From: a virus
Lineage: Duplodnaviria > Caudoviricetes
Virus record (IMG/VR): IMGVR_UViG_3300008448_013349
Coordinates: 1-53,235 of that record
Length of the DNA stretch: 53,235 nt
Direction: 5' to 3' (one strand)
Position numbers and translations under genes: made by a program. The notes under the pieces are model-generated. The model did not search any database. It was not told where the DNA came from and was given only the letters and a program-made list of their open reading frames with translations. Of this stretch, positions 7,708 to 23,393 are shown piece by piece; positions within the stretch are counted from its first letter, which is position 1; every line of letters starts with the position of its first letter.

Positions 7708-7719
7708 TTTTATATCTTT

Positions 7720-8826
7720 TTATGCTCTCCAGCCACAATGACCGGAAGATGTACCGCCATTAACACCAGGTGCCAATCCGCTTACGCTTGTTGTTCCAGT
7801 ATCTGTTGCATAAGTAAATTTCCAGCTTGTATTATTTTGTGCTCCGTCATAGTTTCCAAGCATATATTGGTGGTCTTGCCCCATGGTAAAGTTTTCTTCA
7901 CCACAATTTGGGTGTGGTTTAGCAACGTTACCTAGATTTGTGTCGCTAGCGTTGCTCCATCTTCTTAGATTGTATCCGCCCGAATAACTACCTTCGTTAC
8001 CAGCGTAACCTTTACCTACTTTAGAACTAATGCCTTTTTGTTGTGAGTGTGCCCCCCACATACCGGTTGAAGTAAATGTTTCTGAAGCAAAGCTGAATTT
8101 AATTCCTGCACTAGATGTCCATCCATATCCAAAGTTTTCATCAGAAAAAGCGGATCCACCATCACCACCATCTATTGTTGTTAAGTTATAACCGGTCATT
8201 ATTGATTCGTTGCTTAAATCAAATTTTTCAACATAAGAACTACCACCAGTAAACATGTATGCAAATTCAGTTTCTTTATGCATTGTACCCAAATCACTTC
8301 TTGCTGTTGTTATATTAAATTTTGTTTGGTGTGCATAGTTTGTATCATTTGCCATATTAATTGCTGATGTTCTCACACCATTAACATCTGATGGTCCTTT
8401 AAATGCATTATCGGTATTCACTGACCATACAAAGAAAATGTACTTACTACAAGCACCTGATGTATATGATGCCGGATAATCTAATAGTTCACCAATATGT
8501 GATGTTTGGTCTGTTGAATTAATTGTTTTATGTACGTTCTTCCATGGTGAAGAGTTTTTATACCCTCCGGCCAAATATGAAACAGCAATTATTTGTCTAA
8601 ATTTAAAGCCAACATTTGAATTGACTTGTGAGGATACTCTTACCCATCCACTATCACCATTATCTAACCCAGTATAAACCATGAGAAAACTACCACTAGC
8701 CGCTTGTTCCAAATACAAAGAACCAGTAACAGGACTGCTTGGTCTATTTGCCCTACTTCCTGCTGGTGGTTTTGCAATCCCCTGTGCTCTAAGTGATCCA
8801 CTAATCTCTATGTTATCGTGACGCAT
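7720..8826 (-). CDS. Putative tail/virion protein with kelch-like beta-propeller, paralog 2
   Basis: Colinear with both neighbours (YLAGGYKNSSPWKNVH, CGEENFTMGQDHQYMLG); ends GHCGWRA. Confidence 0.6.
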   Translation of the reverse strand: MRHDNIEISGSLRAQGIAKPPAGSRANRPSSPVTGSLYLEQAASGSFLMVYTGLDNGDSGWVRVSSQVNSNVGFKFRQIIAVSYLAGGYKNSSPWKNVHKTINSTDQTSHIGELLDYPASYTSGACSKYIFFVWSVNTDNAFKGPSDVNGVRTSAINMANDTNYAHQTKFNITTARSDLGTMHKETEFAYMFTGGSSYVEKFDLSNESIMTGYNLTTIDGGDGGSAFSDENFGYGWTSSAGIKFSFASETFTSTGMWGAHSQQKGISSKVGKGYAGNEGSYSGGYNLRRWSNASDTNLGNVAKPHPNCGEENFTMGQDHQYMLGNYDGAQNNTSWKFTYATDTGTTSVSGLAPGVNGGTSSGHCGWRA

Positions 8827-8844
8827 ATTTTATAAATACATTTT

Positions 8845-9978
8845 TTAATTTCTCCAGCCGCAATGCCCCGATGACGTACCACCATTAACCCCTGGAGCTA
8901 GTCCAGCTGGGTTTACGGTTCCCGTATCGGTCGCATAAACAAACTTCCAACTCGTATTATTTTGTAAGCCATCATAGTTTCCAAGCATATATTGATGATC
9001 TTGTCCCATAGTGAAGTTTTCTTCCCCACAATTTCCGTGTGGTTTGGCTACGTTACCTATGTTGGTTTCGTTAAATACATTCCATCTTCTTAAATTATAA
9101 CCTCCATTATATGTGCCCTCATTACCAGCATATCCCTTACCCCATTTTGAGCTAATACCTTTTTGTTGACCGCTTGCACCCCATTGTTGGTTTGTTGTGA
9201 AAGTATCTGTGGCAAAAAACAATTTATTACCACTCTCCGAACCATAACCATAACCATAATTTTCATCTGAAAAACCAGATGCACCAAGAGAACTAGTGAG
9301 GGATGTTTTTAAAGTTAAGTATGGTTGCATATTTGGATAATATACACTATACATAACTTCATTAGTTAAATTAAATTTCTCTACAGTCGCAACACCACCA
9401 CCAAATACCCAAGCAAATTCTGTTTCTTGGAATAATGTACCTAAATCGTCTCTTGCATTTGCTAAATCCCATTTAGATTGGTGTGCATACGCAGTTTCAT
9501 TTACCATATGAACACCTGTTGTATATGTTGAATGTATTTGTGTTGCCGATTTCCATAGACCGTCTGTGTTAGTTGACCATACAAACAATATTGATTTACT
9601 ACACGCACCAGATGTATATGATGCTGGATAGTCCATTAATTCACCTAAGTGAACTGTTTGATCGGTTGCATTTGTTGTGCGGTGTACATTCTTCCATGGT
9701 GAAGAATCTTTATAACCACCGGCCAAGTATGAGAAATTAATAATTTGTCTATATAAAAAACCTATTCTATCTGTATTTTGTGAACCAACTGGCTCCCATC
9801 CATCATCTCTATTTGATGCTGCTGTGTACGTGACAACAAAACTTCCACTACTAGATTCTTCAAGGTAAAGAGATCCTATTTCTGGGCTAGATGGTCTATT
9901 AGCTCTTGGTCCTCTAGGTATTATATATTGTCCACTAACATCTAAAGAGCCACTAACAATTACATTTTCTCTTAACAT
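8845..9978 (-). CDS. Putative tail/virion protein with kelch-like beta-propeller, paralog 1
   Basis: Same conserved blocks as the two downstream genes; ends GHCGWRN. Confidence 0.6.
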   Translation of the reverse strand: MLRENVIVSGSLDVSGQYIIPRGPRANRPSSPEIGSLYLEESSSGSFVVTYTAASNRDDGWEPVGSQNTDRIGFLYRQIINFSYLAGGYKDSSPWKNVHRTTNATDQTVHLGELMDYPASYTSGACSKSILFVWSTNTDGLWKSATQIHSTYTTGVHMVNETAYAHQSKWDLANARDDLGTLFQETEFAWVFGGGVATVEKFNLTNEVMYSVYYPNMQPYLTLKTSLTSSLGASGFSDENYGYGYGSESGNKLFFATDTFTTNQQWGASGQQKGISSKWGKGYAGNEGTYNGGYNLRRWNVFNETNIGNVAKPHGNCGEENFTMGQDHQYMLGNYDGLQNNTSWKFVYATDTGTVNPAGLAPGVNGGTSSGHCGWRN

Positions 9979-9995
9979 ACTTTAATATACGTATT

Positions 9996-12900
9996 TTATC
10001 CGGTAACAACAAGTCTTCCTGTTCTATTTGCAGCAAAAGTTACTGTAACTGTTGTTGATGTTATGTTTATTTCAGAAGGGAAAAACATGTTACCACTACT
10101 ATCAAATACTTGTGCAGTTAAGTTTGCTGTTCCTAAATTATGTGTAAAACTAACACTTGAAACGTTAGAAAATGTTGTTGAGTTACTTAATGCTACTCTC
10201 TTCCATGATTGCCATGTTCCGTTATTTTTACCTCTCGCGTACATTATTCCAGTTCTATAATCACCATAAATTTGATGCTGCCAGCTTGAACTATATACTT
10301 GAGAATAAAGTGCCCCATCTGTTGCATTACCTGTTAAGTTGGTTGAACTACCATCAACGTTGGTAACATATGTTGTACCATTCGCATCTAAACTATTTGC
10401 ATTAACACCTTCGTTTGATCCTGTATTTCTAAATGCTCTGCCTTGTATTTGGCTTACGGTTAAAGAAATTGATGTTGTGCCAGATCCTGACGCATCACCA
10501 CTTATTGATATTGATTGGTTTCCTGTTATGTAACCTGGCCCATTTGTAAGTTGATTTAGATTAGTTAAATTTCCTGAATGATATACACTATATTCGGTTG
10601 TGCCTGTCCCAACCCTAACTTTAACACCATTGGTATCCATTGGGTTAAGTACAATCATATCATCCGCATCATTAGAAACGCCAATAACTAATCGATTCGC
10701 TTCACCACTTGATCCACCAATACCATAAGGATGAAATTGTATAAAACCAAAATCTGATGGGTGATTTATATTTGTTCCGTCTTTTTCAGACTCGAAGAAA
10801 ATACCGCTTACGCCTGAAGAATTACCTTTTAGTACAATATTATCTGCACCTGTTACGTAATTAGATGCTGTGGTATACGTTCCTCTTGAAAGTGACCCAC
10901 CAACGGTTAAACCTCCAGTTAATGTAGCGTCTGCAAATGTTGGGGACGCACTTGTTGCCACTGACTGACCAATAGAAACAGTTACTGCTCCGGTTGTTTG
11001 ATTAACAGAAACACCGGTACCCGCACTCACAGATGTTACTTTTGCGTCGGTATATGCTGTACCAATTGAAGTACCATTCCAAACACCTGTTGTAACAGTG
11101 CCCATATAAACTGTACCATCACCGTAAACTCTTAATAAATTATCTGCCCCCCAATGTCCTAAACTTACATAGTTACTATTAGAACCAGCACTAGACCAAT
11201 TATAACCTAAGTAACCTGCGTTTTTAGTACTACCGGATACCCCAACAACAATTAAATTTGTTTGGCCAGCAGTTGTATTTGCTGCAAATGCTTCTATTGA
11301 ATGATTAAAACTAGAAGCGCTTGAGTTATTAACCCTTAATGTTGGTGCATTTCCAGTACCAGTTCCTGATAATGTTAGACCACCAAATGTTGGTGTTGCG
11401 GCAGTATGTATGCTTTGCGGTAATGAGAATGTTACTGCGCCAGTACTTGCACTAACATTTACTTGGTTTGTAGTGCCGGCTACTGATGTTAATTTTGCGT
11501 CAGTATATGTTGTACTTATCGAACTACCATTCCAAGTACCTGAAGTTATGGTTCCGGTAGATACTGTTAAACCATTTATTGTTCCAGCAAAAGTGGCGCC
11601 AGCAAAATCTAAACTTAAATAATCTTTATATGTTGCATCGTCTCTAAATGCACTGAAAACAAATCTAGCGCTAGTTCCATTTAATGAATTTCTAACTAAA
11701 CGAATATCACCAAGTACTCTACCGCTACCGATTGAGCCCCCTGGATTAATTTGTAATGTTATATTTGAATACTGGCCGGCAGCATTTGTTGTGCTTGTGT
11801 TTTGCATAACAAAGAAACGCCCAGCATCTGTTGGATCCGTGTTAGCTGTATATGTTTGTGTTGAGCCGGTTTGAACTGTTAACACACCTCTACTATCTGT
11901 TCCACCTATTTGTGCTCTACCTGTTATTGTTAAGCTAGCGTGTGTTGGTGAGCTTGTTGTTAATAATGCTTGATCAATATATGTTCCAAAACCTGTTGTT
12001 CCAGTTAATGCTACTTGAGCTGAACCGCTAAATGCCCCAATTGCGTTACCGATTGTTGCCGCGCTTATACTGCCGCCCAATGATGTGGATGTATTAGCAA
12101 TGGTGATTGAGCTATTTGTCAAGGAACTATTACCAATGTTTGATAAAGTATTTGATGCACCACTAATTGTTTTATTAGTTAACGTTTGTGATGTTGTTCT
12201 TAATACAATATCATCTTCTGAACCAAGCACACCTGCAATCCATTTATCACTTGTTGTGTCCCATAATAATGAACCAGATGCGTTTGATGGTGAAGTAGCA
12301 TCTCTAACAACAAGACCAGCATTTGTTGCGCCTGTACCATTCAATTGAATGATATTATCTGCAATATTAACCGTTGTTGAATTTACCGTTGTTGTTGTTC
12401 CCGATACAGTAAAGTTACCTTTCACAGTAACATCGGCACCACTTAAACTAAATGCACTATTAAATGAATTTGTAAAACTATTTAAACTACTTGTTGCAGT
12501 ATGGATTGCATTTATGTTAGTTGTATTAGAGCTAGTATAACTGTTCAATGAACCTGTGCTAGTTTCCAATGCACTTAACCTTCCTCCGGTACTACTTGTA
12601 AAGCTATTTAATGACGCTGTTGTAGCTTCAATAACCCCCAATCTAGTATTATTAGAAGATGTATAAGAATTCAAACTACTTGTTGCAGTATGAATTGCAT
12701 TTATATTGGTTGTATTAGAACTAGTGTACGAATTAAGTGAACTAGTTGATGATTCAATTGAAGTTAATTTACTAGAAGCACTCGATGTAAAAGTATTTAA
12801 TGAGCCGGTTGTACTCTCAATAGAATTAAGTCTATTGTTTTGTGTTGTATTTGTACTATTGTTAGAACTTGTGTAACTATTAAAATCTGTTCTAATACTA

Positions 12901-15900
12901 CTACTTGCACTTTCAAGAGAATTTAATCTTCCGTTCGCACTACTTGTAAATGTATTCAAAGAACTTGTGGTGCTTTCAATAACCCCTAATCTGGTATTAT
13001 TAGAAGATGTATATGAGTTTAATGATCCTGTAGAGGTTTCAACATTTCCGATTCTAGTAACGGCATTGTTAAACTCTGTTTCTCTAACAATTCTTTGTTC
13101 TGAACCTAATTGACCCGCAATCCAATAATCATTCGTTGCGTCCCATAATAATGAACCAGAAACTTGATTTGGTGCTGTGGTATCTTTAACTCTTAATCCA
13201 GCAAATGATGCACCATTACCATTTAAATTAATTAGATTATTATCAACATCAAGTGTTGTTGTATTTACATTTGTTGTTGTTCCTTTAACTAATAAGTTAC
13301 CTTTAATGGTTAAGTTAGATCCAGTTAATTCTATTGCTGTTTGTAAAGAAGATGTGTAAGAATTTAACCTTCCAGTTGCAATTTGAATTGCTGTTATATT
13401 CGGGCTTGTTATATTTTGTGTAACAATAAGTGTTCCTGTAACTTCTGTATTTGAATTAATACTTACCTTGGTTCCAGTATCTGTTATATTACTATCATTT
13501 AAATGCTCAATACCTGTTCCTTTTGGTATACGATTTAAAGTTAAGTAAGATTCTCCACCTAAATTGTTGGTTGTTTGAGGACCCATCAATAAAACTGATG
13601 ATGTTATAGCAGATTGATTTTGATGAACAAAAATCCATTGATCATTTACCGAATCAAATAACATCGATCCAGAAACTTGAGGTGATGAGCCACTATCTAT
13701 TACAGCTAAGCCGCCAAATCTTGTTGATGGATTTTGAGCATTTACTGTAATTAAGTTTGTCCCGATGTTTAATGTACTTTGAGAAACGAAATTAATTGAA
13801 GACGAACCACCCACAATTAAATCTTGTGAGATGTATAATGAGCCGGTGATTGTTTGACTACCCTGAAATACATTACTTCCAGTTGTTGCATAACTACCGG
13901 TTTTCCCTTCTAGCGAATTCAATCTACTATCTTGCCCAGCATCAGTTGTTGCTAAAGATGAACTGAATGTTGAATAACCTGTTGTACTTGATAAAGTTAC
14001 TTGTGCTGAGCCCGATATAACATTCTCAGCATTTAATCTATTCTTAATCGTTGTATTAATTGAACTTGTGAAAGAATTCAACGAAGATGTTGCAGTTTCA
14101 ATTGATGCAATTCTAGTATTAGTACTACTTGTATAAGAATTTAAAGATGATGTTGTTGACTCAATTACACCTAATCTAGTATTTGTAGATGATGTGTAAG
14201 AATTTAATGAAGCAGTTGTTGAATTAACACTATTATTAATTGCACTTTGAGAACTTGTGTAACTATTAAGTGAGCTAGTGCTTGTTTCAATAGCATTTAA
14301 TCTATTGTTTTGTGTTGTATTTGTAGAATCGTTAGAACTTGTGTAACTATTAAAATCTGTTCTAATAGAACCGCTTGCTGTTTCTAAACTAGTTAATTTA
14401 TTATTCGCACTACTTGTAAATGTATTTAATGAGCCAGTAGATGTCTCAATTGCATTCAGTTTTACATTTGTACTTGATGTATATGAATTTAATGATGATG
14501 TAGCAGTATGAATAGCAGATAAGCTATTGTTAACGCTAGTGGTAAATGTATTTAAAGATCCAGTAGAAGTTTCAATTATACCTAATCTTGTATTTGTTGA
14601 AGATGTATAGCTATTAAAATCACTTCTAATAGATGAACTAGCGGTTTCTAATGAACTTAGTTTAGTGTTTGTACTTGAAGTAAAAGTATTTAAACTTGAT
14701 GTTGATATTTCAAGACTATTAAGTCTACTATTGTTGCTAGATGTTACTTCTTGAATACTACTTACTCTTGAATCAATTGAAGTTGAGAAAGTATTATATT
14801 CATTGTTTAAAATTATTCTTTCTTCGGTACCTAGCTGTCCTGCCTTCCAATAATCGGATGTGCTATCCCATAGCAACGAACCGGATGCGGTATTTGGTGC
14901 AGTGGGATCTTGAACCACTAGACCAGCATTATTTGTGCCAGTGCCATTTAATTGAATAATGTTATCACCAATATTAACTGTTGTAGAATCTATTTGTGTT
15001 GTTGTTCCCTTAACTAACAAATTACCCTTAATTGTTAAATTAGATCCGGTAACTTCAACCGCCCCCAATATAGAAGAGCTAAATGAATTTAAACTACTTG
15101 TTGCAGTATGAATTGCATTTATGTTAGTTGTATTTGAACTTGTATAGGAATTCAAACTACTTGTTGCAGTATGAATAGCATTAATATTAGTTGTATTAGA
15201 ACTTGTATAGCTATTTAAACTAGCTGTTGCTTGATTTAAAGCTGTTAAGGGAGTTGCAAAATCCAATAACCCAATTTGTTGATCTGTATAGTTTTTAGAA
15301 TCCAATAATGATCTACTAATTGACTGAGAAATTGATGTACTGAATGATGTAAAATCTGTAGTACCCGTAATAGATATTTGAATAGCACCAGACACCACAC
15401 CGTCCGCATCCATTTTGTTCTTAATTGTTGTGTTAATTGAACTCGTAAATGTGTTTAAAGATCCTGTGGATACTTCTAAAGCAGATACCCTACTATCATT
15501 TGATGATGTATATGTATTAAAAACCGTTTCATCTAATTTACCGGTTCCAATTGGCTGACCATTCAATGATATTGACCCCGTTATATTAACAGAACCAGTA
15601 ACAGATAAAGATCCGCTTATTGTTTGTGAACCAGTTAATGAGTTTGACCCGGTTGTTGCTATTCTGGATGGGTCAATATATACAACATTTCTATCCGCTT
15701 CAAGATTTAATAAATCTGATTGAACAGAAATTCCGCTTCCCATTCCTGGGTGTGATGTGCAGAAATAATATAGCGTTGATGGGGTTGTGTCCGTTACAAC
15801 TATTTGAATATAATCTGGGGTAGCTCCTGTGGTTACACCGGTGCTGTATATAACACCGCCATTGTGTGTACCATCATTTGTAGTTGAGAACCTAAATGGA

Positions 15901-16421
15901 TGGGCTCCAATATTTGGAAATAAGAATTTATATGTGAATCCCTTAACTAGGGTTAGTTGTGGGTTTCTAACATTATCAATGAAATATTTTCCCGCTGAAT
16001 CCGTTACTGATACTGTCACCAATCCATTTGTACCAACATTAATGTTATTAACCTTTAAATTACCTGTAATTTCGGTGTTTGTGTTGATTAATAAACCATT
16101 TGCTTGGGATATAGATGCGGTAGCATTACCTTCGGAAATTTGGCTTAAATTAAGCCCTGTTACCCCACTAGCCGGTATATTGTATAAACCAGACCCGTTA
16201 CCGCTAAAAGAGCCGGTAAATGAACCGGTATTATATGAAGAAGTGAACTGATGAAAGCTAGATGTTAGGGTATAGGAAGCGGCATGCGAAGCTGAAACCG
16301 CATTTTCCGCAGTACCAGAAATAGTGGCAAATAATGTACCTAAAACCGTTAAATCGCCCGAAACTTGGCCGGAGCCCGATACCGACAGCGAGCCGGATAT
16401 TTGTGGATCAAAAATATTCAT
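9996..16421 (-). CDS. Giant Ser/Thr-rich tail fibre-like protein (2141 aa) with N-proximal cupredoxin-like domain
   Basis: 21-residue SLNSYTSS coiled-coil repeats, repeated GNLxVxGTTT...DNIIQLN knobs, C-terminal RGKNNGTWQSW and HNLGT...VTVTF fibre motifs; HPF...YFCTSHPGM near the N-terminus. Confidence 0.8.
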   Translation of the reverse strand: MNIFDPQISGSLSVSGSGQVSGDLTVLGTLFATISGTAENAVSASHAASYTLTSSFHQFTSSYNTGSFTGSFSGNGSGLYNIPASGVTGLNLSQISEGNATASISQANGLLINTNTEITGNLKVNNINVGTNGLVTVSVTDSAGKYFIDNVRNPQLTLVKGFTYKFLFPNIGAHPFRFSTTNDGTHNGGVIYSTGVTTGATPDYIQIVVTDTTPSTLYYFCTSHPGMGSGISVQSDLLNLEADRNVVYIDPSRIATTGSNSLTGSQTISGSLSVTGSVNITGSISLNGQPIGTGKLDETVFNTYTSSNDSRVSALEVSTGSLNTFTSSINTTIKNKMDADGVVSGAIQISITGTTDFTSFSTSISQSISRSLLDSKNYTDQQIGLLDFATPLTALNQATASLNSYTSSNTTNINAIHTATSSLNSYTSSNTTNINAIHTATSSLNSFSSSILGAVEVTGSNLTIKGNLLVKGTTTQIDSTTVNIGDNIIQLNGTGTNNAGLVVQDPTAPNTASGSLLWDSTSDYWKAGQLGTEERIILNNEYNTFSTSIDSRVSSIQEVTSSNNSRLNSLEISTSSLNTFTSSTNTKLSSLETASSSIRSDFNSYTSSTNTRLGIIETSTGSLNTFTTSVNNSLSAIHTATSSLNSYTSSTNVKLNAIETSTGSLNTFTSSANNKLTSLETASGSIRTDFNSYTSSNDSTNTTQNNRLNAIETSTSSLNSYTSSQSAINNSVNSTTASLNSYTSSTNTRLGVIESTTSSLNSYTSSTNTRIASIETATSSLNSFTSSINTTIKNRLNAENVISGSAQVTLSSTTGYSTFSSSLATTDAGQDSRLNSLEGKTGSYATTGSNVFQGSQTITGSLYISQDLIVGGSSSINFVSQSTLNIGTNLITVNAQNPSTRFGGLAVIDSGSSPQVSGSMLFDSVNDQWIFVHQNQSAITSSVLLMGPQTTNNLGGESYLTLNRIPKGTGIEHLNDSNITDTGTKVSINSNTEVTGTLIVTQNITSPNITAIQIATGRLNSYTSSLQTAIELTGSNLTIKGNLLVKGTTTNVNTTTLDVDNNLINLNGNGASFAGLRVKDTTAPNQVSGSLLWDATNDYWIAGQLGSEQRIVRETEFNNAVTRIGNVETSTGSLNSYTSSNNTRLGVIESTTSSLNTFTSSANGRLNSLESASSSIRTDFNSYTSSNNSTNTTQNNRLNSIESTTGSLNTFTSSASSKLTSIESSTSSLNSYTSSNTTNINAIHTATSSLNSYTSSNNTRLGVIEATTASLNSFTSSTGGRLSALETSTGSLNSYTSSNTTNINAIHTATSSLNSFTNSFNSAFSLSGADVTVKGNFTVSGTTTTVNSTTVNIADNIIQLNGTGATNAGLVVRDATSPSNASGSLLWDTTSDKWIAGVLGSEDDIVLRTTSQTLTNKTISGASNTLSNIGNSSLTNSSITIANTSTSLGGSISAATIGNAIGAFSGSAQVALTGTTGFGTYIDQALLTTSSPTHASLTITGRAQIGGTDSRGVLTVQTGSTQTYTANTDPTDAGRFFVMQNTSTTNAAGQYSNITLQINPGGSIGSGRVLGDIRLVRNSLNGTSARFVFSAFRDDATYKDYLSLDFAGATFAGTINGLTVSTGTITSGTWNGSSISTTYTDAKLTSVAGTTNQVNVSASTGAVTFSLPQSIHTAATPTFGGLTLSGTGTGNAPTLRVNNSSASSFNHSIEAFAANTTAGQTNLIVVGVSGSTKNAGYLGYNWSSAGSNSNYVSLGHWGADNLLRVYGDGTVYMGTVTTGVWNGTSIGTAYTDAKVTSVSAGTGVSVNQTTGAVTVSIGQSVATSASPTFADATLTGGLTVGGSLSRGTYTTASNYVTGADNIVLKGNSSGVSGIFFESEKDGTNINHPSDFGFIQFHPYGIGGSSGEANRLVIGVSNDADDMIVLNPMDTNGVKVRVGTGTTEYSVYHSGNLTNLNQLTNGPGYITGNQSISISGDASGSGTTSISLTVSQIQGRAFRNTGSNEGVNANSLDANGTTYVTNVDGSSTNLTGNATDGALYSQVYSSSWQHQIYGDYRTGIMYARGKNNGTWQSWKRVALSNSTTFSNVSSVSFTHNLGTANLTAQVFDSSGNMFFPSEINITSTTVTVTFAANRTGRLVVTG
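12480..15230 (-). repeat. Intragenic 63-nt (21-aa) imperfect tandem repeat arrays
   Basis: aaactacttgttgcagtatg at 15091 and 15154 (63-nt offset), also near 12484 and 12673; gttagaacttgtgtaactattaaaatctgttctaata at both 12861 and 14331. Confidence 0.85.
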
Positions 16422-16478: not shown

Positions 16479-16985
16479 CTATATTAGGCTTTTTGCCCCA
16501 TTCCGATATTTTTTATTACTATCAATCTTAAATGTAAATTCAGTATCAAGGTACCCTTCTAACTTACTTAAACCGAAAGGGGTATAGTATAATTCATCAT
16601 ATGTTAGAAATAAGCAATCATCACAACTTAATAGGTATTCATTTTCCTTAATAATTGTTTGTTCCATTTCTAAGATTTTAGAATGATTCTCTAATAAAAA
16701 TGATTTTTCAATGGTATATGGTTCAAATTTTTTTTCAACTAAATCCGCGTATACTCTACTTTCAGCTTGATCTTTAATATTATCCCTAGTTAAAACTATC
16801 TTTTTATCAAAATAAGATTGAATTTCATTATATTTTGATTCAGAGGGGGTTATTTTTATGATAATGTCAGTAGGTAAGGGGTAAATTAAGCTACCTCTGT
16901 GGTAATCACAACCATAATGCGCCATTAACAATTGGGCTAATGCTGTGGACCCCGTTCTATGTGTTGTATAAATTAGAATTTTCAT
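16479..16985 (-). CDS. Sulfotransferase-like P-loop protein
   Basis: ILIYTTHRTGSTAL PAPS-binding-loop-like motif; IVLTRDN; LTYDEL. Confidence 0.6.
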   Translation of the reverse strand: MKILIYTTHRTGSTALAQLLMAHYGCDYHRGSLIYPLPTDIIIKITPSESKYNEIQSYFDKKIVLTRDNIKDQAESRVYADLVEKKFEPYTIEKSFLLENHSKILEMEQTIIKENEYLLSCDDCLFLTYDELYYTPFGLSKLEGYLDTEFTFKIDSNKKYRNGAKSLI

Positions 16986-17799
16986 TAATATGTTTTAATA
17001 TACTTTCAGCTATAGATAAATGACCGTCATAACTTGGGTGGTAATCTATGATAGCAGAATTTGTATCATGCATAATTGTATGTTTATCTCTAATAATTTT
17101 TTGTAAAATTCCATCTTCACTTGTAGAGATTAGATTTTTTGGTTTCTCATACATACCTGGCCAATAATCTTCGTGTATTAAATAAATCTGTAATCCTAGT
17201 GAGGTTAAAAAATTAGAAAGTTTAATGAACCTCCAAATTTGTCTTTCATAATATTTTTTAGTTGATAAAAACTCGGTAAAAAAATATTTTATAAGATTAT
17301 ATTTTTCTTTGGTCAATTTTAATTCTTTTTTATTTGTTTCACCTGTAGAAAATGTCAAAGCATCTTCTCCGCCATTTTCATATTCTTTCACAATATTTGT
17401 ACTAAAAACGGTTTTAAAGAAATAGGGTGACTTGTTGTCTGGATCATATATATTATCACGACTATTAACTTCCCAGCCACCAAATAACTTTTTTTCCTTT
17501 ACAAATGGAAAGTCATATCTAGCACTTGTAGAAATTTGAATTACAATAATGTCGTCACTTTTAAATTCACTCAAATTATCAAAAACGTAATCAATAATGT
17601 GGTCGTTACTGATACCATTAACACCATAATTTAAAAGGTTTAAACCAAGTGTTGATGCAACATGTTCAGCCCATATTGGTCTATCTAAATCTATGTAATC
17701 CACATACTTTACATTGAATGTATTATCCAAATTACCGGGAAATTTCCTACACCCATATCCAAAAGTAAAACTATCGCCAAATGTCCAAAGGTTATTCAT
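16957..17799 (-). CDS. SGNH/GDSL-like hydrolase or acyltransferase
   Basis: LWTFGDSFTFG block I; NYGVNG; DYHPSYDGH block V. Confidence 0.65.
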   Translation of the reverse strand: MNNLWTFGDSFTFGYGCRKFPGNLDNTFNVKYVDYIDLDRPIWAEHVASTLGLNLLNYGVNGISNDHIIDYVFDNLSEFKSDDIIVIQISTSARYDFPFVKEKKLFGGWEVNSRDNIYDPDNKSPYFFKTVFSTNIVKEYENGGEDALTFSTGETNKKELKLTKEKYNLIKYFFTEFLSTKKYYERQIWRFIKLSNFLTSLGLQIYLIHEDYWPGMYEKPKNLISTSEDGILQKIIRDKHTIMHDTNSAIIDYHPSYDGHLSIAESILKHINENSNLYNT

Positions 17800-18467
17800 G
17801 ATATGAATTTATAAAAATATTCTGATTGAATCAAGTGTCCCTTTTCACCAAAATGATCATCATTTAATAATCCATTGGTTTCCATTCTAATATCTTCTGC
17901 TCCCAATGAAATTAAATAAGATCTGAGATCGTTATGTTCAGCCCCAATAAATCCAGGTCTATTTAATGTTTGATCAAAAGTCCAATAAAAAAGTTTAAAC
18001 CCCTTTAATTGATGATACCCATTAATTAGATTCATCCAATTATCAATTTCGTTTGCCCATTTTTTATTTACTCTGTTTCTGGATATCTGATTAATTGTTT
18101 CTAATTCAATACCGTTTAATAATCTTGGGGTGTTGGGATTGTTTATTGCGTAAGGTCTTACAGTTATAAAACTTTCTGTATATTCATCATATAACCTATA
18201 GTTTTGAATATTCGCCCATCCAATAATTACTATATCATCTTTTTGAATTTTGTTCGATGCTTTACAAAACCACTCAAAAATATCATAGTTTGATTGACCT
18301 TCAATAGCATAGTTATTTAACTTTAAATTAAGTTTTGATGATAATAACTCTGACCAGGATGGTGGAAAATTATCGTTTCTAAGGCGTCTATAATATTCAT
18401 ATCGCCTCTCTTTAGTTCTACCAAAAATTGAGGATGCATTGTCTCCAAAAACCCAAAGTCTATTCAA
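17796..18467 (-). CDS. SGNH-like protein with the catalytic Ser apparently replaced (GDN)
   Basis: LWVFGDNASS, NYAIEGQSN, DDHFGEKGH; paralog of the downstream gene; TTG start. Confidence 0.55.
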   Translation of the reverse strand: MNRLWVFGDNASSIFGRTKERRYEYYRRLRNDNFPPSWSELLSSKLNLKLNNYAIEGQSNYDIFEWFCKASNKIQKDDIVIIGWANIQNYRLYDEYTESFITVRPYAINNPNTPRLLNGIELETINQISRNRVNKKWANEIDNWMNLINGYHQLKGFKLFYWTFDQTLNRPGFIGAEHNDLRSYLISLGAEDIRMETNGLLNDDHFGEKGHLIQSEYFYKFIS

Positions 18468-18469
18468 AA

Positions 18470-18568
18470 TTAATTAGAATGTTTAGCTCTAATAGCCGCA
18501 AATAAAATTTGTAAAATGTTTAATGATGCTACTTTATCTGCTTCCGTTGCTGCTGTTTTTATCTTCAT
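18470..18568 (-). CDS. Small ORF, 32 aa (MKIKTAATEADKVASLNILQILFAAIRAKHSN)
   Basis: Read manually; fills the gap between flanking genes on the coding strand. Confidence 0.55.
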   Translation of the reverse strand: MKIKTAATEADKVASLNILQILFAAIRAKHSN

Positions 18569-18579
18569 TTCAATATATT

Positions 18580-18789
18580 TTATTTTTTAAACCCTAATTT
18601 TTCCCAAATAATTTTGAATGGGCAAACACCAGTAAGTGCCGCTAATGGTAATATAGTTGGTGGAGCCCAATGCAGCCAACTAACATTTTCAAAACCAGCT
18701 AAACAATTGGCAATAAACACAACAATTCCTACTGATAGAAATGTCATTCTTGCTGACGGTGAGGCATCACCTAAATTAAATAATTTCAT
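18580..18789 (-). CDS. Small two-helix membrane protein, DUF2892/YgaP-like
   Basis: Two hydrophobic segments followed by ALTGVCPF...LG. Confidence 0.6.
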   Translation of the reverse strand: MKLFNLGDASPSARMTFLSVGIVVFIANCLAGFENVSWLHWAPPTILPLAALTGVCPFKIIWEKLGFKK

Positions 18790-18794
18790 AATTT

Positions 18795-20648
18795 TTATTT
18801 TTCTTCATCATAAACTAATATGCCATTAGCATAGAAGTTTTTATTATCTTCAATAAATAAAGTGTATGTTTGAACATCGTTTAACTCTTCGTTAATTGAT
18901 GTTACCTCAACACCTGAGTTATTTTCATCTACACATGTTGTACCAATTGAAAGTTGTGTAACGTCACCTTTATACCATTGCATCGTTTTTTCTGGTAAAT
19001 AAGATGTTAGGCTACCTTCGATGGTATAGTACGGGTGGTCAAATGTATTTTTATTTGTTACACCATTACTAAACCCAACTTCAACAATATCATTATGTAT
19101 TGGCGAAACTACTTGTAAAACTTTTTTAAGTTCTTTAGTTTGTGTTTCAAAATTAAACGACCATACCATGTCACCGACTTTTATGTCTTTGATTAGGACA
19201 TCGCCGTTTTCTGTTGCGACCTTAGTATCTTCAGTAAAACAACAGAAACCAGACCAAGTACATTTGTTGTGTAATAATATGTCACCAACAGTATTTCGGC
19301 TTATTTCGTTTGTTGAGGTTCCAGCAACAAAAACGTCAGCTGGTTCTATATCTAATATTACAACACTACCTGAATACCAAACATTTTCTTTTTTTGTAAC
19401 GGGCAACATTAAATTTTGTGTGGTAATTACCGAGTCGTTTAATGTTGTTTCGTAGGCCGTCTCAAAAGTTATACTACCACTTACTGAACTACTAATAAGT
19501 AAAACTTCAGCACTACCCAATAAGGATGATCCGCTAACTTCATTATTACCATATTCAAGATTAGTTAACCAACCTTGGTAAGGTGTTTTAGTAATGAAAC
19601 GAACGGAAGCCGTTTCGTATGAAATGATATCGCTTAAGCTACCTGTTGCTGACCATTCCAATGTACTCTCCATGGTTGCGTCTACACTTAAATTAGATAA
19701 TCTAGCCGATTTGATTATGTCTCCAGCAACTAGATTCTCTATTGTTGTTGTTTCTTCATTACCTTCACTAACTTTAATAACCTCATAGAAACCAGGAACC
19801 CCCATACCTAATAAATTAGGATTTGAAAAATACATAGCTTTCCACATATTATCTAATTTATTACCAGTATAAGTAATTTTTGATGTGTCTAATGGTAATT
19901 GGTTATTTGTTATTGTTACACCTAGTGGAATAATAGTTTCTACATCTGAAAGTAGAACAATTGTCATTCTAATTACATCACTAATTTGCCCATCAGAGCT
20001 AAGATTATTATTGATCTGATATTCCTGTAACATAACACTGTCTGAGGTGCCTGTTTTTAAATCTGTGAGTTCCTCAGATGTCTGAATATTATAAAAAGCA
20101 GGGAAGTTTAACTTATCGAAATCTGGAAGTATTTTCTTAGCGATAACGTTAGGAGATGGGGCATTACTAATTGGGGTTGTTAAATTATCTAAAATCGATC
20201 CATCCTCACTATATTTTACATATGTTTTAGGTAAAATTGATTGATTACCTGAGTCAAACAATAACTTAACAACTTCAGACTTATCTCTACAATACGTGTC
20301 ATCGATAATCGCAGTAACATCATATGCACATCTTAAATAAAATGCATTTGGTTCTTCGGTGATAGATGGTACTGTAACACTGTTATTCAATATTACAATA
20401 GTTTGTAGTGTGATAGACTTTTCATTACATTTTTCTTGAAATAGATTGATTACATCTTGAGAAATATGCTTTCTTTTATAAATTATAACCAATTTATTGT
20501 ACGAATTTGTCTCCAAAAATGTAAATAATGGGCCCAAATCCAAGTAAGGGATGTCTGGTAAAAATAAGTCAGCATCCGTGTTTATTTCTAGCAATTTATA
20601 CCCATTTTCCAGTTTAAGTATGTCTGCACCAATTAGTACACTTTTCAT
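18795..20648 (-). CDS. Circularly permuted ATP-grasp-like domain fused to two tandem Hint (intein-like) domains
   Basis: GADIL...KLLEINTD, LPKTY, VIAKK, MLQEY; Hint1 IENLVAGDIIKS...LDIEPADVFVAG...ILLHN; Hint2 CFTEDTKV...IKDIKVGD...TFDHPY...NFYANGILVYD. Confidence 0.75.
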   Translation of the reverse strand: MKSVLIGADILKLENGYKLLEINTDADLFLPDIPYLDLGPLFTFLETNSYNKLVIIYKRKHISQDVINLFQEKCNEKSITLQTIVILNNSVTVPSITEEPNAFYLRCAYDVTAIIDDTYCRDKSEVVKLLFDSGNQSILPKTYVKYSEDGSILDNLTTPISNAPSPNVIAKKILPDFDKLNFPAFYNIQTSEELTDLKTGTSDSVMLQEYQINNNLSSDGQISDVIRMTIVLLSDVETIIPLGVTITNNQLPLDTSKITYTGNKLDNMWKAMYFSNPNLLGMGVPGFYEVIKVSEGNEETTTIENLVAGDIIKSARLSNLSVDATMESTLEWSATGSLSDIISYETASVRFITKTPYQGWLTNLEYGNNEVSGSSLLGSAEVLLISSSVSGSITFETAYETTLNDSVITTQNLMLPVTKKENVWYSGSVVILDIEPADVFVAGTSTNEISRNTVGDILLHNKCTWSGFCCFTEDTKVATENGDVLIKDIKVGDMVWSFNFETQTKELKKVLQVVSPIHNDIVEVGFSNGVTNKNTFDHPYYTIEGSLTSYLPEKTMQWYKGDVTQLSIGTTCVDENNSGVEVTSINEELNDVQTYTLFIEDNKNFYANGILVYDEEK

Positions 20649-20659
20649 ATGTTTTTTAA

Positions 20660-21232
20660 TTAAATTATATTCTTTTTATCTGTTTTTTTATATATAAATA
20701 CCTCAAGTTTCTCTTTAGAATCTTGCCCATCATTATAAAATAACATAAATCTGTCCCCAAATTCTTTTTTATAACCCACCATGTTGCTATAAGAAAGATA
20801 CCAGCTATCAATAGTTATGTTATGCGGGTAAGTACGTTCTCTAACCTCAATCCGATCTAAACAAGTTTCTAGATCTGCGTATACCATAATCATAAAAGTC
20901 TGATATCCTCTTTTTTCTAAAAAAGACCTCTGATAAAATATGATCTCCGGGTCCCTCCCAATTGAATCGATTACAATATTATCCTCATTTTCCACAGAAC
21001 TATTGAACTTTTGATCATTAATACCTTTTGATTTTTCAAACAATTCTAATGCTTTTTTACTGTTTTCCGGAGAAAAGTCTTTAATTTTTAGATTAAGGCC
21101 GCACTTTATTAGCTCTTGTTCATATATTAAATCAATATCAATAATTGTGTAGTTTGGAAAATACGTTTTTGCTAAGGTGCTTTTCCCGCTACCCCCACTT
21201 CCACATATGAAATAAGCTTTTTTAGTTTTCAT
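20660..21232 (-). CDS. P-loop kinase (zeta toxin/AAA_33-like)
   Basis: GSGGSGKST Walker A, IVIDS, VYADLETCLDRIEVRER lid. Confidence 0.75.
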   Translation of the reverse strand: MKTKKAYFICGSGGSGKSTLAKTYFPNYTIIDIDLIYEQELIKCGLNLKIKDFSPENSKKALELFEKSKGINDQKFNSSVENEDNIVIDSIGRDPEIIFYQRSFLEKRGYQTFMIMVYADLETCLDRIEVRERTYPHNITIDSWYLSYSNMVGYKKEFGDRFMLFYNDGQDSKEKLEVFIYKKTDKKNII

Positions 21233-21680
21233 TTAAGTAGGATTTTATTAGGGTAATGTCTTCGAGGTGTTTGTCCGGGTTATCCCCATGCTTCATTATA
21301 ATCTCTTTATCAAGCAGGTGAAATTTTGGTGCTAAAATTCTTATATTGTCTTTTAAAACATAGATATTGCTACCATAATTAACAAATAAATGAAATTCGT
21401 TTAATTTGGTCTTTTTGTCAAAACAAGTGTAAACATCATATTCTAGCTCACCGTGTCTAATTTGAATTCCTGGATAAATGCGAAAAGATTTTTCTAATTG
21501 ATTTTTATATGTTAACCAATCGAGATGTAAAATATTGACATCTAAATCATTAACATCTCTTTCTATTATATTTTGCATTTTTAACCCCAAGGACCCACTT
21601 AATATGATTTTACCTTCAGTTATATTGTATAACTGATTAAAAATTTCATTATAAGAGCTTGTTGTTATGTTTTCTATCAC
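21222..21680 (-). CDS. Pol-beta superfamily nucleotidyltransferase-like protein
   Basis: ILSGSLGL...RDVNDLDV (GS + DxD). Confidence 0.55.
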   Translation of the reverse strand: MIENITTSSYNEIFNQLYNITEGKIILSGSLGLKMQNIIERDVNDLDVNILHLDWLTYKNQLEKSFRIYPGIQIRHGELEYDVYTCFDKKTKLNEFHLFVNYGSNIYVLKDNIRILAPKFHLLDKEIIMKHGDNPDKHLEDITLIKSYLNEN

Positions 21681-22170
21681 CTTTTCTTAATGTATTATTA
21701 TTATAACCAAAAATATCTTCATAATACATGATTTTCTGGTCTAATCTTGAGGCGATTACTTTTAATTTATTCTCCCACCTTAAAATTTGATCATAAGATT
21801 CATCATAGTTTGGTGTTTTTTCCCAAAAATATTCAGTCTCAAAATCGAACCCGGGGGTTTCGTTTCTTTTATAATTTAAAAACGCCCAGCTTTCAATACA
21901 TGCATTTATATTTTTTCTGCTTAATAAATAAGTTTTATCAAATTGGCTACTGAAATTTACATACCAATCAACATCAAATTCATCATTAATCAACGTTTTA
22001 ACTATTACATTATCTTTGGTGTAATCTGTGTCAAAATTTTTTAGTTTATTGAATTTAGATGCCATTGGGGCAAATGGTTCGAAAACAAAAGATAATAACT
22101 GTTCTTCAGCTAACTTTTTAGAAAAAGAAGTTGACCCTGTTCTTGGTAATGATAAAACCAGAATTCGCAT
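21649..22170 (-). CDS. Sulfotransferase-like P-loop protein
   Basis: LSLPRTGSTSF, FEPF, LLSRKN, YYEDIF. Confidence 0.65.
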   Translation of the reverse strand: MRILVLSLPRTGSTSFSKKLAEEQLLSFVFEPFAPMASKFNKLKNFDTDYTKDNVIVKTLINDEFDVDWYVNFSSQFDKTYLLSRKNINACIESWAFLNYKRNETPGFDFETEYFWEKTPNYDESYDQILRWENKLKVIASRLDQKIMYYEDIFGYNNNTLRKGDRKHNNKLL

Positions 22171-23393
22171 TAAACTAAATTTTTTGTATATATACCCGAT
22201 TTTCCTTTGTGAATCGTCTGCCAGCTTCCCCAGTTAAAATTAGAAAAGTTTAGATCGTGTGCTAACATTTCTTTTACCTTTAAATTATGTGTTGGGAAAT
22301 TAAAGGCACCTTGTTCATTATAAAGCTTTGCTAATTTATCTGGTAGAGGGGTGTTTTTATAGTCTACCCAAAATTTAGTATCTAATCGATCACATGTATA
22401 ATGGTGTCTAACAAACAACATATTTTGTTCATTGTAATTAAACATTCTTTCGTTGTATAGATCTCTATATTTTTCATCGAAGTTATAATCTAACAACCCC
22501 TTTAAAAACATTATACTTGTCATCATAGATGTCGCTTCCATTGGCTCTAGAAAAGACGACGCTAACCCAACAGCAACACAGTTTTTAACCCAAAACTTTT
22601 TATATGTTCCACTTTTAAATTTAAACTCTTTTACTATGTCAAGTTTTCTACCAAAATATTCCTCCGCTTCGGATAGGACTTCTTCTGTTGTTGTATGTTT
22701 GTCTGAGAATACATAACCAGATCCCCATCTATGTTTTAATGGTGCACCCCATACCCAACCATTTTTCATTGATATTCCCTTAGTCCATGTTTTGGTCTTT
22801 TGAATATCAGGGTTATCTTGTGGTAAGAAAAAAGCAATTGCTGAATTACAAAGTAATTGATCAGCATAAGACACCCATTCAGTTTTAAAATGTTTACCGA
22901 TAACTAATTCTTGAAACCCACTGCAATCAAATACAAAGTCGCATTTAACTATTTCACCATTGTCCAGAATTATTTCATTAATACCATTTTCATTCTCATT
23001 AAACCCTTTGATGATAGCGTCTATGCGTTTTATATTTTTATCTTTTGAAAATTCTTCTAAATATTTTGCCACTAATCTGGCATCAAAATGATATGCATAA
23101 ACCAACTCATTATTTTGAAAGTTATGCTTAAATGATTTCCCATCTCCTCTCCAATTGACAAAATCAATACCATACTTTTTTGTGCATCCGGTTTTCTCCA
23201 TAAAGTCCTCTTCATTTATGTTTAACCTTGATAGAATTGTGGGGAAATTTGGTGTTGTTCCTTCTCCGGCGCCTAATATATCTATTTTTGAACTGGCTAT
23301 TAATGTCACATCGATATTAGCCCAAAATTTTTGAGCAAATAATGCTGTTAGCCAACCAACAGTTCCTCCACCTATTACAACAACTTTTTTCAT
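22170..23393 (-). CDS. Flavin-dependent tryptophan halogenase family protein
   Basis: GGGTVG, GAGEGT, TKKYGIDFVNW (catalytic Lys region), AYHFDA, FDCSGF, GWVWGAP, FLEPMEAT. Confidence 0.9.
   Translation of the reverse strand: MKKVVVIGGGTVGWLTALFAQKFWANIDVTLIASSKIDILGAGEGTTPNFPTILSRLNINEEDFMEKTGCTKKYGIDFVNWRGDGKSFKHNFQNNELVYAYHFDARLVAKYLEEFSKDKNIKRIDAIIKGFNENENGINEIILDNGEIVKCDFVFDCSGFQELVIGKHFKTEWVSYADQLLCNSAIAFFLPQDNPDIQKTKTWTKGISMKNGWVWGAPLKHRWGSGYVFSDKHTTTEEVLSEAEEYFGRKLDIVKEFKFKSGTYKKFWVKNCVAVGLASSFLEPMEATSMMTSIMFLKGLLDYNFDEKYRDLYNERMFNYNEQNMLFVRHHYTCDRLDTKFWVDYKNTPLPDKLAKLYNEQGAFNFPTHNLKVKEMLAHDLNFSNFNWGSWQTIHKGKSGIYTKNLV

Follow-up and report, generated by a model that had tools for sequence, protein, structure and literature searches.

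The gene considered here lies on IMGVR_UViG_3300008448_013349, a linear virus record of IMG/VR (Duplodnaviria; Caudoviricetes), which was analysed over its whole length of 53,235 nucleotides and is called the window in the following. The estimated completeness of the record is 21%, therefore the genome should measure roughly 250 kb. The gene encodes a protein of 617 amino acids (aa), in which a predicted ATP-grasp domain is followed by two predicted Hint domains that bracket the octapeptide KCTWSGFC. The first Hint domain (Hint1) retains exactly the set of residues used for C-terminal cleavage, the second one (Hint2) exactly the set used for N-terminal thioester formation. An earlier note, made from the DNA sequence alone, had read this arrangement as a device that would excise the octapeptide without a protease. 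The parts of the gene are the following.

18795..20648, minus strand: intact open reading frame (ORF) of 617 aa with an ATG start; stop codon at 18795-18797; the order of the parts is ATP-grasp, Hint1, octapeptide, Hint2
19803..20648, minus strand: aa 1-282, predicted ATP-grasp domain of the circularly permuted, GspS/YgiC-like type; E21-x-N23, a candidate Mg motif, comes before K171 and Q208-E-Y210
19266..19802, minus strand: predicted Hint1, aa 283-461, with Gly at position 1 and without the block B Thr/His; D438 corresponds to position 13 of block F (F:13), and the domain ends in H460-N461 (N461 is nt 19268-19266)
19242..19265, minus strand: KCTWSGFC, aa 462-469, between the predicted scissile bonds N461-K462 and C469-C470
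18798..19241, minus strand: predicted Hint2, aa 470-617, of the bacterial intein-like (BIL)/Hedgehog type; Cys1 is C470 (nt 19241-19239), block B is T538-x-x-H541, and the end is YDEEK, not HN

The positions that the earlier note had assigned to the octapeptide (aa 462-469, nt 19265-19242), to the ATP-grasp motifs (D9, LLEINTD 19-25, LPKTY 139-143, AKK 170-172 and QEY 208-210) and to the Hint motifs (G283, ILLHN 457-461, CFTEDT 470-475, TFDH 538-541 and the C-terminal LVYDEEK) were all found to be correct, and the location of the gene on a virus record agrees with its claim that the system is phage-encoded.

A word-index search found 196 relatives of the protein, and a search with a profile of aa 1-461 yielded 312 cluster representatives at E ≤ 0.001, with lengths between 460 and 906 aa. 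All recovered family loci are on viral or metagenome contigs, and those relatives that are named at all are called 'hypothetical protein'. The layout of the 617-aa protein is shared by more than 60 relatives of 615-621 aa. The core profile was matched by 285 proteins, of which 227 were full length; the residue counts given below refer to these 227 members, a set that over-represents close relatives because it was drawn from best-match lists. A tblastn search of 50,697 phage records with the 617-aa protein gave no match (the collection may be without near relatives). Fold search of BFVD returned many phage Hint proteins, some of them tandem, and no named relative with an ATP-grasp-Hint fusion. 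A literature search at the level of listings, supplements excluded, found no description of an ATP-grasp domain combined with half-Hint domains, and it is solely on these listings that we call the architecture undescribed.

The full-length protein was modelled with AlphaFold2 from an alignment of 66 sequences. The mean predicted local distance difference test (pLDDT) score was 83.1, and residues 454-467 alone were modelled with low confidence (pLDDT <50). In the Pfam search of the 617-aa protein aa 1-461 had no match and no endonuclease domain was found; Hint-type matches, all of them sub-threshold, were confined to aa 468-612. The PHROGs matches to aa 468-612 were only to intein-bearing or unknown families.

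According to the available part of PMC4031507, Cys1 and the block B Thr/His make the N-terminal thioester, whereas the terminal Asn, the penultimate His and F:13 cut the C-terminal junction. Hint2 possesses the first set. When the full-length model was compared with the PDB by Foldseek, matches included the BIL2 structure 6y75 (E 1.7e-12, template modelling (TM) score on the target 0.85-0.88), the BIL domain 2lwy, mini-inteins and Hedgehog 1at0; the query was the full-length model and the aligned query residues were not reported, and it is the Pfam Hint matches that place Hint2 at aa 468-612. The pLDDT was around 90 across aa 470-617. The Pfam matches of the window's Hint2 stayed below the gathering cut-offs (Intein_splicing 23.3 bits, cut-off 35.8; Hint_2 23.3, cut-off 28.4; PT-HINT 21.4, cut-off 27.7), and in relatives the Pfam Hint matches reached E values down to 4.2e-24. 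C470 and T538-F-D-H541 are in place and the end reads LVYDEEK, i.e. Hint2 has Cys1 and TFDH and lacks the terminal His-Asn, just as the earlier note had it. Among the downstream Hints of the family Cys1 is present in 143 of 143 and the T..H pair in 138 of 143, and a terminal HN was found in 59 of the 143 (22 of 23 internal Hints, 37 of 120 last Hints). Approximately 79 of the 84 downstream Hints without terminal HN end in YDE.K, as the Hints of the window's subfamily do.

The remaining set of catalytic residues is found in Hint1. The segment aa 280-468, modelled separately with AlphaFold2 from an alignment of 91 sequences, gave a pLDDT of 89.7 and a predicted TM score of 0.84. In the Foldseek search of the PDB with the Hint1 model all 50 matches listed were Hint domains of inteins, BIL proteins or Hedgehog (E 4e-6 to 5e-3), with TM scores of up to 0.79 on the target and 0.31-0.61 on the query (at least 0.50 for 49 of the 50 listed). 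To this a family-level comparison can be added. A hidden Markov model (HMM) of 147 positions, built solely from the C-terminal Hints of diverse relatives, recognized the Hint1 region in 45 of 206 relatives at E ≤ 1e-3 and in 12 at E ≤ 1e-5, the best value being 2e-10. The best of these alignments were colinear over HMM positions 2-145, with the terminal HN aligned to the HN of the model. The fold supports the assignment of aa 283-461 as a Hint domain, with the profile adding support at the level of the family, and the result that had been named as fatal for the proposal, a different fold in this segment, was not obtained. The crippled character of Hint1 was confirmed as well: the domain starts with G283, and H460 is its sole His, therefore no TxxH motif is possible there.

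The C-terminal end of Hint1 is extremely conserved. Among the 227 full-length members N461 is invariant (227/227), H460 is present in 223, and the F:13 position is Asp in 203 and His in 17. Position 1 was Cys in none of the 30 relatives in which it could be mapped. At least one residue follows the Asn in all 227 members and none of them ends at the Asn, therefore the scissile bond is always present. The Hint1 end is as conserved as the residues of the ATP-grasp domain described below, a pattern suggesting that the half-sites are under selection. The earlier note had expected that homologs would show reciprocal rather than random loss. The loss is not random, as Cys1 is absent from Hint1 (0/30) and its Asn invariant, while Cys1 is invariant in the downstream Hints; the second half of the expectation stood only in part, since loss of HN from Hint2 is mostly a trait of the window's subfamily. 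By these counts the reciprocal loss appears to be real and under selection, yet only one half of it is universal.

Neither domain is classed as a splicing intein. Hint1 is followed by Lys462, and Hint2 by 3-5 residues and a stop codon, so there is no +1 Cys, Ser or Thr extein. The class 2 and class 3 intein mechanisms were considered for Hint1 and ruled out: Lys occupies the +1 position, and Cys is missing from block F (compared with the available part of PMC4031507).

The same counts bear on the view that the Hints are inactive leftovers of selfish BIL-type insertions 3' of the ATP-grasp gene, in which case the protein would stay intact and the octapeptide would be a linker. The two or three tandem Hints of some relatives do resemble selfish expansion, and Hint2 of the window, besides scoring below the Pfam thresholds, has lost its terminal HN. 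Decay of this kind would not be expected to spare the catalytic residues selectively, as happened with Cys1 and T..H of the downstream Hints and with the Asn of Hint1, nor to leave Hint1 in the conserved core of all 227 members; in the subfamily even the linker has conserved Cys463, Cys469 and aromatic positions. We hold this explanation to be very improbable.

It is somewhat less improbable, and in our judgement still rather unlikely, that only Hint2 is active. It would then behave like Hedgehog or a type B BIL, and would either shed itself, leaving a protein with ...HNKCTWSGFC as the free acid, or transfer this C-terminus to a nucleophile, which could be a Lys of a target or of the small ..KHS protein described below. 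Hint1 would have a structural or substrate-holding role and would keep its HN for a reason other than cleavage. Hint2 has the full set for N-terminal cleavage (C470, T538, H541) and Hint1 lacks block B; the best structural match, BIL2, conjugates its upstream domain to lysines (as stated in the accessible portion of PMC8616854); and relatives have at this place a Peptidase_S74 domain or a stop codon, both of which merely free the upstream C-terminus. On the other hand, if there is no C-terminal cleavage, it is difficult to see why a domain whose other catalytic residues are gone should conserve the Asn, the His and the D/H at F:13, and why every member should have at least one residue after the Asn.

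The first 282 residues resemble permuted ATP-grasp enzymes, as the earlier note had concluded from the order of the motifs. In the Foldseek search with the full-length model the GspS-family enzymes were the sole non-Hint folds matched in the PDB: YgiC (7uk8, E 4.5e-7), YjfC (7uk6, 1.2e-6) and GspS (2io7, 1.7e-5), with 303-322 aligned columns, a low TM score of 0.23-0.37 and a root-mean-square deviation of 8-9 Å. The ESM Atlas gave ATP-grasp leads only (0.91-0.93). The motif order is permuted, ExN being N-terminal to K171 and QEY. E21, N23 and D116 are present in all 227 full-length members, D9, R106 and R227 in 226 and K171 in 224; we take E21, N23, K171 and the other conserved positions to be probable Mg- and ATP-binding residues. 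At the sequence level the Pfam family GSP_synth (PF03738) did not match at E ≤ 1, nor at E ≤ 10 in a six-frame search of the window run without control loci, and the aa 1-461 profile found nothing significant among PDB sequences (best E 0.1). The fold match and the conserved residues support the assignment of aa 1-282 as a permuted ATP-grasp domain of the GspS/YgiC type. All three domain calls of the earlier note are thus supported, ATP-grasp and Hint2 by Foldseek, and Hint1 by AlphaFold2, Foldseek and the family-level profile. GspS joins a peptide carboxylate to an amine. By analogy, the substrate of the ATP-grasp domain could be the tail or the small ..KHS protein.

The segment that follows Asn461 was compared across the family. 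The classes were assigned by a table of regular expressions and the counts are approximate, because HN was mislocated in four proteins and at least four entries classed as ends have S74-like C-termini. In about 99 of the 227 members the tail simply runs to a stop codon, with 1-5 residues in 36 of them and at least 15 in 52; 47 of the 99 have 1-8 residues after the Asn. One Hint follows in 100 members, two in 19 and three in two. In at least seven members the tail is followed by Peptidase_S74, and a few more are hidden in the stop class; Pfam detected this domain in five of 68 scanned members at E ≤ 1e-3. Peptidase_S74 is a self-cleaving C-terminal intramolecular chaperone of tail spikes, which in known cases follows a trimeric fibre. 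The S74 relatives also suggested a role in a virion fibre, which was set aside, the neighbouring genes being those of enzymes.

The tails are either short (1-8 residues) or Cys-rich peptides of up to about 175 aa. In tails and spacers of at least 15 aa the Cys content is 13-20%, as opposed to 0.57% in the core. The spacer before a downstream Hint measures 0-61 aa, and 0-5 aa in 28 of the 121 Hint-bearing members. The relative P0179 has a Cys-rich peptide of 35 aa between two complete Hints, P0126 has one after its Hint, and in P0186, in P0193 and at the loci L016-L018 (members of 904-912 aa) the ATP-grasp-Hint1 core is followed by three tandem complete Hints (C1...HN) that are 0-5 residues apart. 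In the window's subfamily the octapeptide follows the pattern K-C-x-[W/Y/Q]-x-x-x-C, mostly K-C-x-W-S-G-F-C; variants are KCH[YT]YPYC, KCIYSWWC and xKGCSWC. The expectation that the inter-Hint peptide varies among homologs was therefore borne out across the family and not inside the subfamily, where the octapeptide is conserved.

Lys, alone or followed by 1-3 further residues, is the ending of many tails and terminal Hints (HNK-stop, ...GGQK, ...QCAAK, EGFFK), and among the short tails several have Trp as their last residue (KW, RKNWW, TKSAW, AKQLW). These endings may reflect the codon bias of AT-rich DNA or may be a recognition feature.

Judged by its hypervariability in length and sequence, the segment after the Asn behaves like a payload. 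A stop codon, a Hint and Peptidase_S74 are unrelated to one another, and each would leave or expose the C-terminus of the tail, therefore we suggest that selection favours a tail whose C-terminus is free or activated. The interchange of the three at one position is an evolutionary hint that liberation of the C-terminus matters.

A conserved head with a hypervariable C-terminal payload behind a Hint is also reminiscent of polymorphic toxins, in which PT-HINT releases the effector, and Pfam PT-HINT was matched by 38 of the 68 scanned members. The head would in that case be a carrier from which the Asn-cleaving Hint frees a variable Cys-rich effector directed against the host or competitors, and the ATP-grasp domain would be unrelated to this function. 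The payload of the window measures only 8 aa, and no immunity-like gene or secretion/trafficking domain was noticed in the ORF comparisons, which did not include a dedicated search. A toxin-like role seems quite unlikely to us.

Alternatively, the payload may have no function once it is released. The tail and its cap would then be a disposable or regulatory extension of a pro-enzyme, for instance a Zn- or redox-sensing Cys knuckle, and Asn cyclisation would switch on the ATP-grasp domain. What the whole family conserves is the ATP-grasp core, almost half of the uncapped members (the 47 mentioned above) would release 1-8 residues only, others would release only Hints spaced 0-3 residues apart, and several long tails have CxxC pairs, which are putative zinc ligands. 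The tails of up to about 175 aa, their hypervariability and the co-occurrence with a Trp halogenase (see below) suggest on the contrary that the tail is the selected product, and a tail that is to be discarded would need no cap to expose its C-terminus. We regard the pro-enzyme explanation as unlikely.

The reading that we consider the best one, tentatively and at slightly less than an even chance, is a double self-cleavage that releases an activated peptide. The protein would be a fusion of an active GspS/YgiC-like ATP-grasp amidoligase, a Hint that cuts only at its C-terminus, a short peptide and a Hint that cuts only at its N-terminus. C470 of Hint2 would perform an N-to-S acyl shift, assisted by T538 and H541, and convert the C469-C470 bond to a thioester. 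N461 of Hint1 would cyclise with the help of H460 and D438 (F:13) and break the N461-K462 bond. The expected products are the ATP-grasp-Hint1 protein 1-461 with a succinimide end, free Hint2, and KCTWSGFC, its alpha-amine free and its C-terminus activated as a thioester. The thioester might be hydrolysed, might react with the peptide's own amine, closing a head-to-tail ring in the manner of the aminolysis in type A BIL domains, or might react with another nucleophile. Cyclisation would need direct aminolysis, and native chemical ligation would be inapplicable, because the peptide has Lys rather than Cys at its N-terminus. The ATP-grasp domain and the small ..KHS protein would act in the same pathway. 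Precedents for two of the steps are described in the consulted portion of PMC4031507: isolated Asn cyclisation occurs, and in type A BIL domains the freed amine can attack the thioester. Domain identities, residue conservation, architecture and synteny are what we observed, and every chemical step is inferred.

Several points weigh against double cleavage. The window's own Hint1 matched the HMM built from C-terminal Hints at E 0.028 only, and an hhalign comparison of Hint1 with Hint2 from the close family was not significant (probability 4%), therefore the identity of Hint1 at the sequence level rests on homology to the relatives. The last strand of the Hint1 model has a pLDDT of about 58-68, and with residues 454-467 below 50 in the full-length model, the arrangement around N461 and C470 is left unmodelled. 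Inteins with a C-terminal Asp exist, and the YD end of Hint2 might still cleave. Spacers of 0-5 aa (28/121) and uncapped ends of 1-5 aa (36/99) imply that an excised peptide is not the product of every member. Finally, Hint1 has no block B, and Asn cyclisation is slow in many inteins unless it is coupled to the upstream steps (from the part of PMC4031507 at hand).

Three genes upstream of the family gene the window encodes an enzyme that may act on the peptide.

22170..23393, minus strand: flavin-dependent Trp halogenase of 407 aa (Pfam Trp_halogenase, E 4.8e-93)

Its PDB matches include the Trp 5-halogenase 8fov (9.6e-60) and VirX1 (6qgm, 1.3e-45). The protein is shorter than its solved homologues (407 aa vs 497-554 aa), and the main match aligns residues 93-357 of the query with residues of about 160-432 of the chain. 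It appears to lack the C-terminal part of the solved enzymes, as might suit a peptide or protein substrate.

The co-occurrence of the halogenase and of Trp in the tail was scored in 40 non-redundant loci; loci that showed no halogenase and whose upstream flank was shorter than 4 kb, genes cut off by a contig end, proteins with an incomplete core or without HN, and identical cores were left out of the table. Both features were present in 16 loci and both absent from 20, four loci had the Trp only, and none had the halogenase only; in other words, the tail contained Trp in all 16 loci with the halogenase and in four of the 24 without it. When all assessable loci of the 617-aa subfamily were considered, duplicates included, the halogenase accompanied KCxWSGFC in 13 of 13 cases and KCH[YT]YPYC in none of five. 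The phylogeny speaks for less. In a quick maximum-likelihood tree the state of the halogenase changed at least four times, an independent-pairs test found 3-4 pairs, of which about two pointed in the same direction and none in the opposite one (sign test p 0.5), and the four Trp-only loci have no halogenase in their flanks. The association is phylogenetically thin and is a lead, not a result. If it holds, the flavin halogenase of the neighbourhood is the probable modifier of W465.

On its 3' side the family gene has two small neighbours.

18580-18789, minus strand: hydrophobic ORF of 69 aa between the family gene and the small ORF, with no Pfam match
18470..18568, minus strand: ORF of 32 aa ending in ...ILQILFAAIRAKHSN, with an amphipathic C-terminal helix, the syntenic partner of the family gene

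The small ORF occurs throughout the family. It encodes 31-53 aa, ends in ..[K/E]H[S/L/T](x) and lies 2-34 nt 3' of the family gene. Where the 69-aa ORF intervenes, in the window and in L002, L031, L036 and L040, the spacing is about 227 nt, and it is 12 nt in the other loci of the 617-aa form. Searching by pattern detected the small ORF in 45 of 64 non-redundant assessable loci; four of these hits, of 17 residues, are doubtful, hence at least 41 are counted, and at least one true copy was missed. Loci with the small ORF include the deepest branch (approximately 25% identity), and copies were found in L002-L006, L012-L019 and many of L030-L106. We consider it a coding gene, because third positions change synonymously with the protein sequence conserved. 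Its synteny makes it a candidate substrate, carrier or acceptor of the ATP-grasp/Hint system. The 69-aa ORF is presumably similar to DUF2892/YgaP-like membrane domains.

Further genes of the window, all on the minus strand, are listed here.

21649-22170, minus strand: 173-aa protein with LPRTGSTS near its N-terminus; no Pfam match; matches in 7 of 18 viral loci
21222-21680, minus strand: 152-aa protein with a GS...DLD motif; no Pfam match
20660-21232, minus strand: P-loop kinase of 190 aa (Pfam AAA_18, Zeta_toxin, AAA_33), which overlaps the 152-aa gene and is directly upstream of the family gene
16479-18467, minus strand: GDSL/SGNH-like paralogs of 223 aa and 280 aa (weak Pfam Lipase_GDSL_2 on one of them), and a 168-aa protein of unknown family
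within 6592-16421, minus strand: ORF of 2141 aa with coiled-coil-type Pfam matches, preceded by three paralogs of about 370 aa belonging to phrog_1417 (unknown function)
24000-47400, minus strand: enzyme island with a 2-oxoglutarate (2OG)-Fe oxygenase, a carbamoyltransferase, a UDP-glucose dehydrogenase, a B12-binding radical S-adenosylmethionine (SAM) protein of 1167 aa, at least four more radical-SAM proteins (one of them SPASM) and two GT7-type glycosyltransferases fused to Laminin_G_3

The motif of the 152-aa protein is, we assume, nucleotidyltransferase-like. Of 18 viral loci, 6 (L002-L006 and L019), all with at least 47% identity, have the 152-aa gene and/or the kinase gene in their flanks, and both genes are immediately upstream in L002, L003, L005 and L019. 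In relatives the GDSL/SGNH-like genes form arrays of up to four copies and the 168-aa-type genes arrays of up to two. The order of 152-aa/kinase genes, family gene and GDSL/SGNH arrays recurs in relatives of 47-70% identity.

The locus has what could be traits of the gene clusters for peptides that are made by the ribosome and modified post-translationally (RiPPs): a variable Cys-rich tail behind the conserved 461-aa head, the halogenase, and the SPASM and B12 radical-SAM proteins and the 2OG oxygenase of the island. The most far-reaching interpretation, which we regard as possible and rather doubtful, is a protease-free RiPP-like factory of large aquatic phages. The 461-aa protein would be enzyme and leader at once, attached to a Cys/Trp-rich core; a VirX1-type enzyme would halogenate the core, the half-intein would free its N-terminus, a stop codon, S74 or a Hint would expose or activate its C-terminus, and the ATP-grasp domain or the thioester would ligate or cyclise it, with the ..KHS mini-protein as partner, carrier or acceptor. 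That the locus encodes a peptide-maturation system of a new kind in some form has a substantial chance.

Whatever the chemistry, a large unannotated phage family has been defined by the 312 cluster representatives, and the tail of the 617-aa protein is a testable candidate substrate for the VirX1-related flavin halogenases of phages. If the RiPP-like interpretation were true, a natural substrate of VirX1-type halogenases would have been identified. If the half-sites work, the protein would be the natural counterpart of engineered two-intein systems for peptide release and cyclisation, and a new route to a modified peptide that needs no leader protease. As far as gene sequences tell, the new elements would be the distribution of half-sites over two domains, the tiny or Cys-rich payload, the fusion to a permuted ATP-grasp domain, the interchange with S74, the small partner ORF and the occurrence in large phages.

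Partial likenesses exist to several known systems. The ATP-grasp domain shares its fold and permuted motif order with GspS, YgiC and YjfC, and differs from them in being fused to Hints and in having no match to Pfam GSP_synth or to PDB sequences. Peptidase_S74 of phage tail spikes takes the position of Hint2 in some relatives (HNKW-SDIRLKEN...) and is absent from the protein of the window. The RiPP Trp halogenases (SrpE/SrpI, MibH) and VirX1 invite comparison, as a halogenase is found near a gene with Trp in its C-terminal tail. According to the portion of PMC12615548 available to us, SrpI brominates the C-terminal Trp of cores of 5-7 residues in a leader-dependent manner. VirX1 is a cyanophage halogenase, for which the table in the review PMC8407142, of which a part was available, gives no associated gene cluster. 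The difference is that the 'leader' here would be a 461-aa enzyme with a half-intein, and that release would proceed without a protease.

The closest natural analogue is the BUBL locus of ciliates, in which a payload also lies between two Hint/BIL domains (BIL - ubiquitin-like - BIL). BIL2 of such a locus activates its upstream payload as a thioester and conjugates it without ATP (PMC8616854, the part consulted). BIL2 of Tetrahymena BUBL1 (6y75/6tmm) was the best structural match of the full-length model and the second-best of Hint1. In the phage protein, in contrast, the payload is a Cys/Trp peptide of 8 aa (0 to about 60 aa in relatives) without a ubiquitin fold, the upstream Hint lacks Cys1 and block B, the downstream Hint lacks HN in the subfamily, and an ATP-grasp domain is fused to them. 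With the BIL domains of types A and B the phage Hints share a location outside conserved host proteins, the lack of a +1 nucleophile and a predicted mainly cleaving activity (BIL properties from the part of PMC4031507 seen). The C. thermocellum BIL structure 2lwy was likewise a top structural match, of both the full-length model and Hint1. What sets the phage protein apart from the BIL domains, with which it was compared by fold, is the presence of complementary half-sites on two domains. In the TWIN/SICLOPPS systems an upstream intein that cleaves at its C-terminus and a downstream intein that forms a thioester bracket the target peptide. These are the closest artificial analogues, and the phage protein would follow the same logic, with the differences that it is natural and that its peptide would begin with Lys, not Cys.

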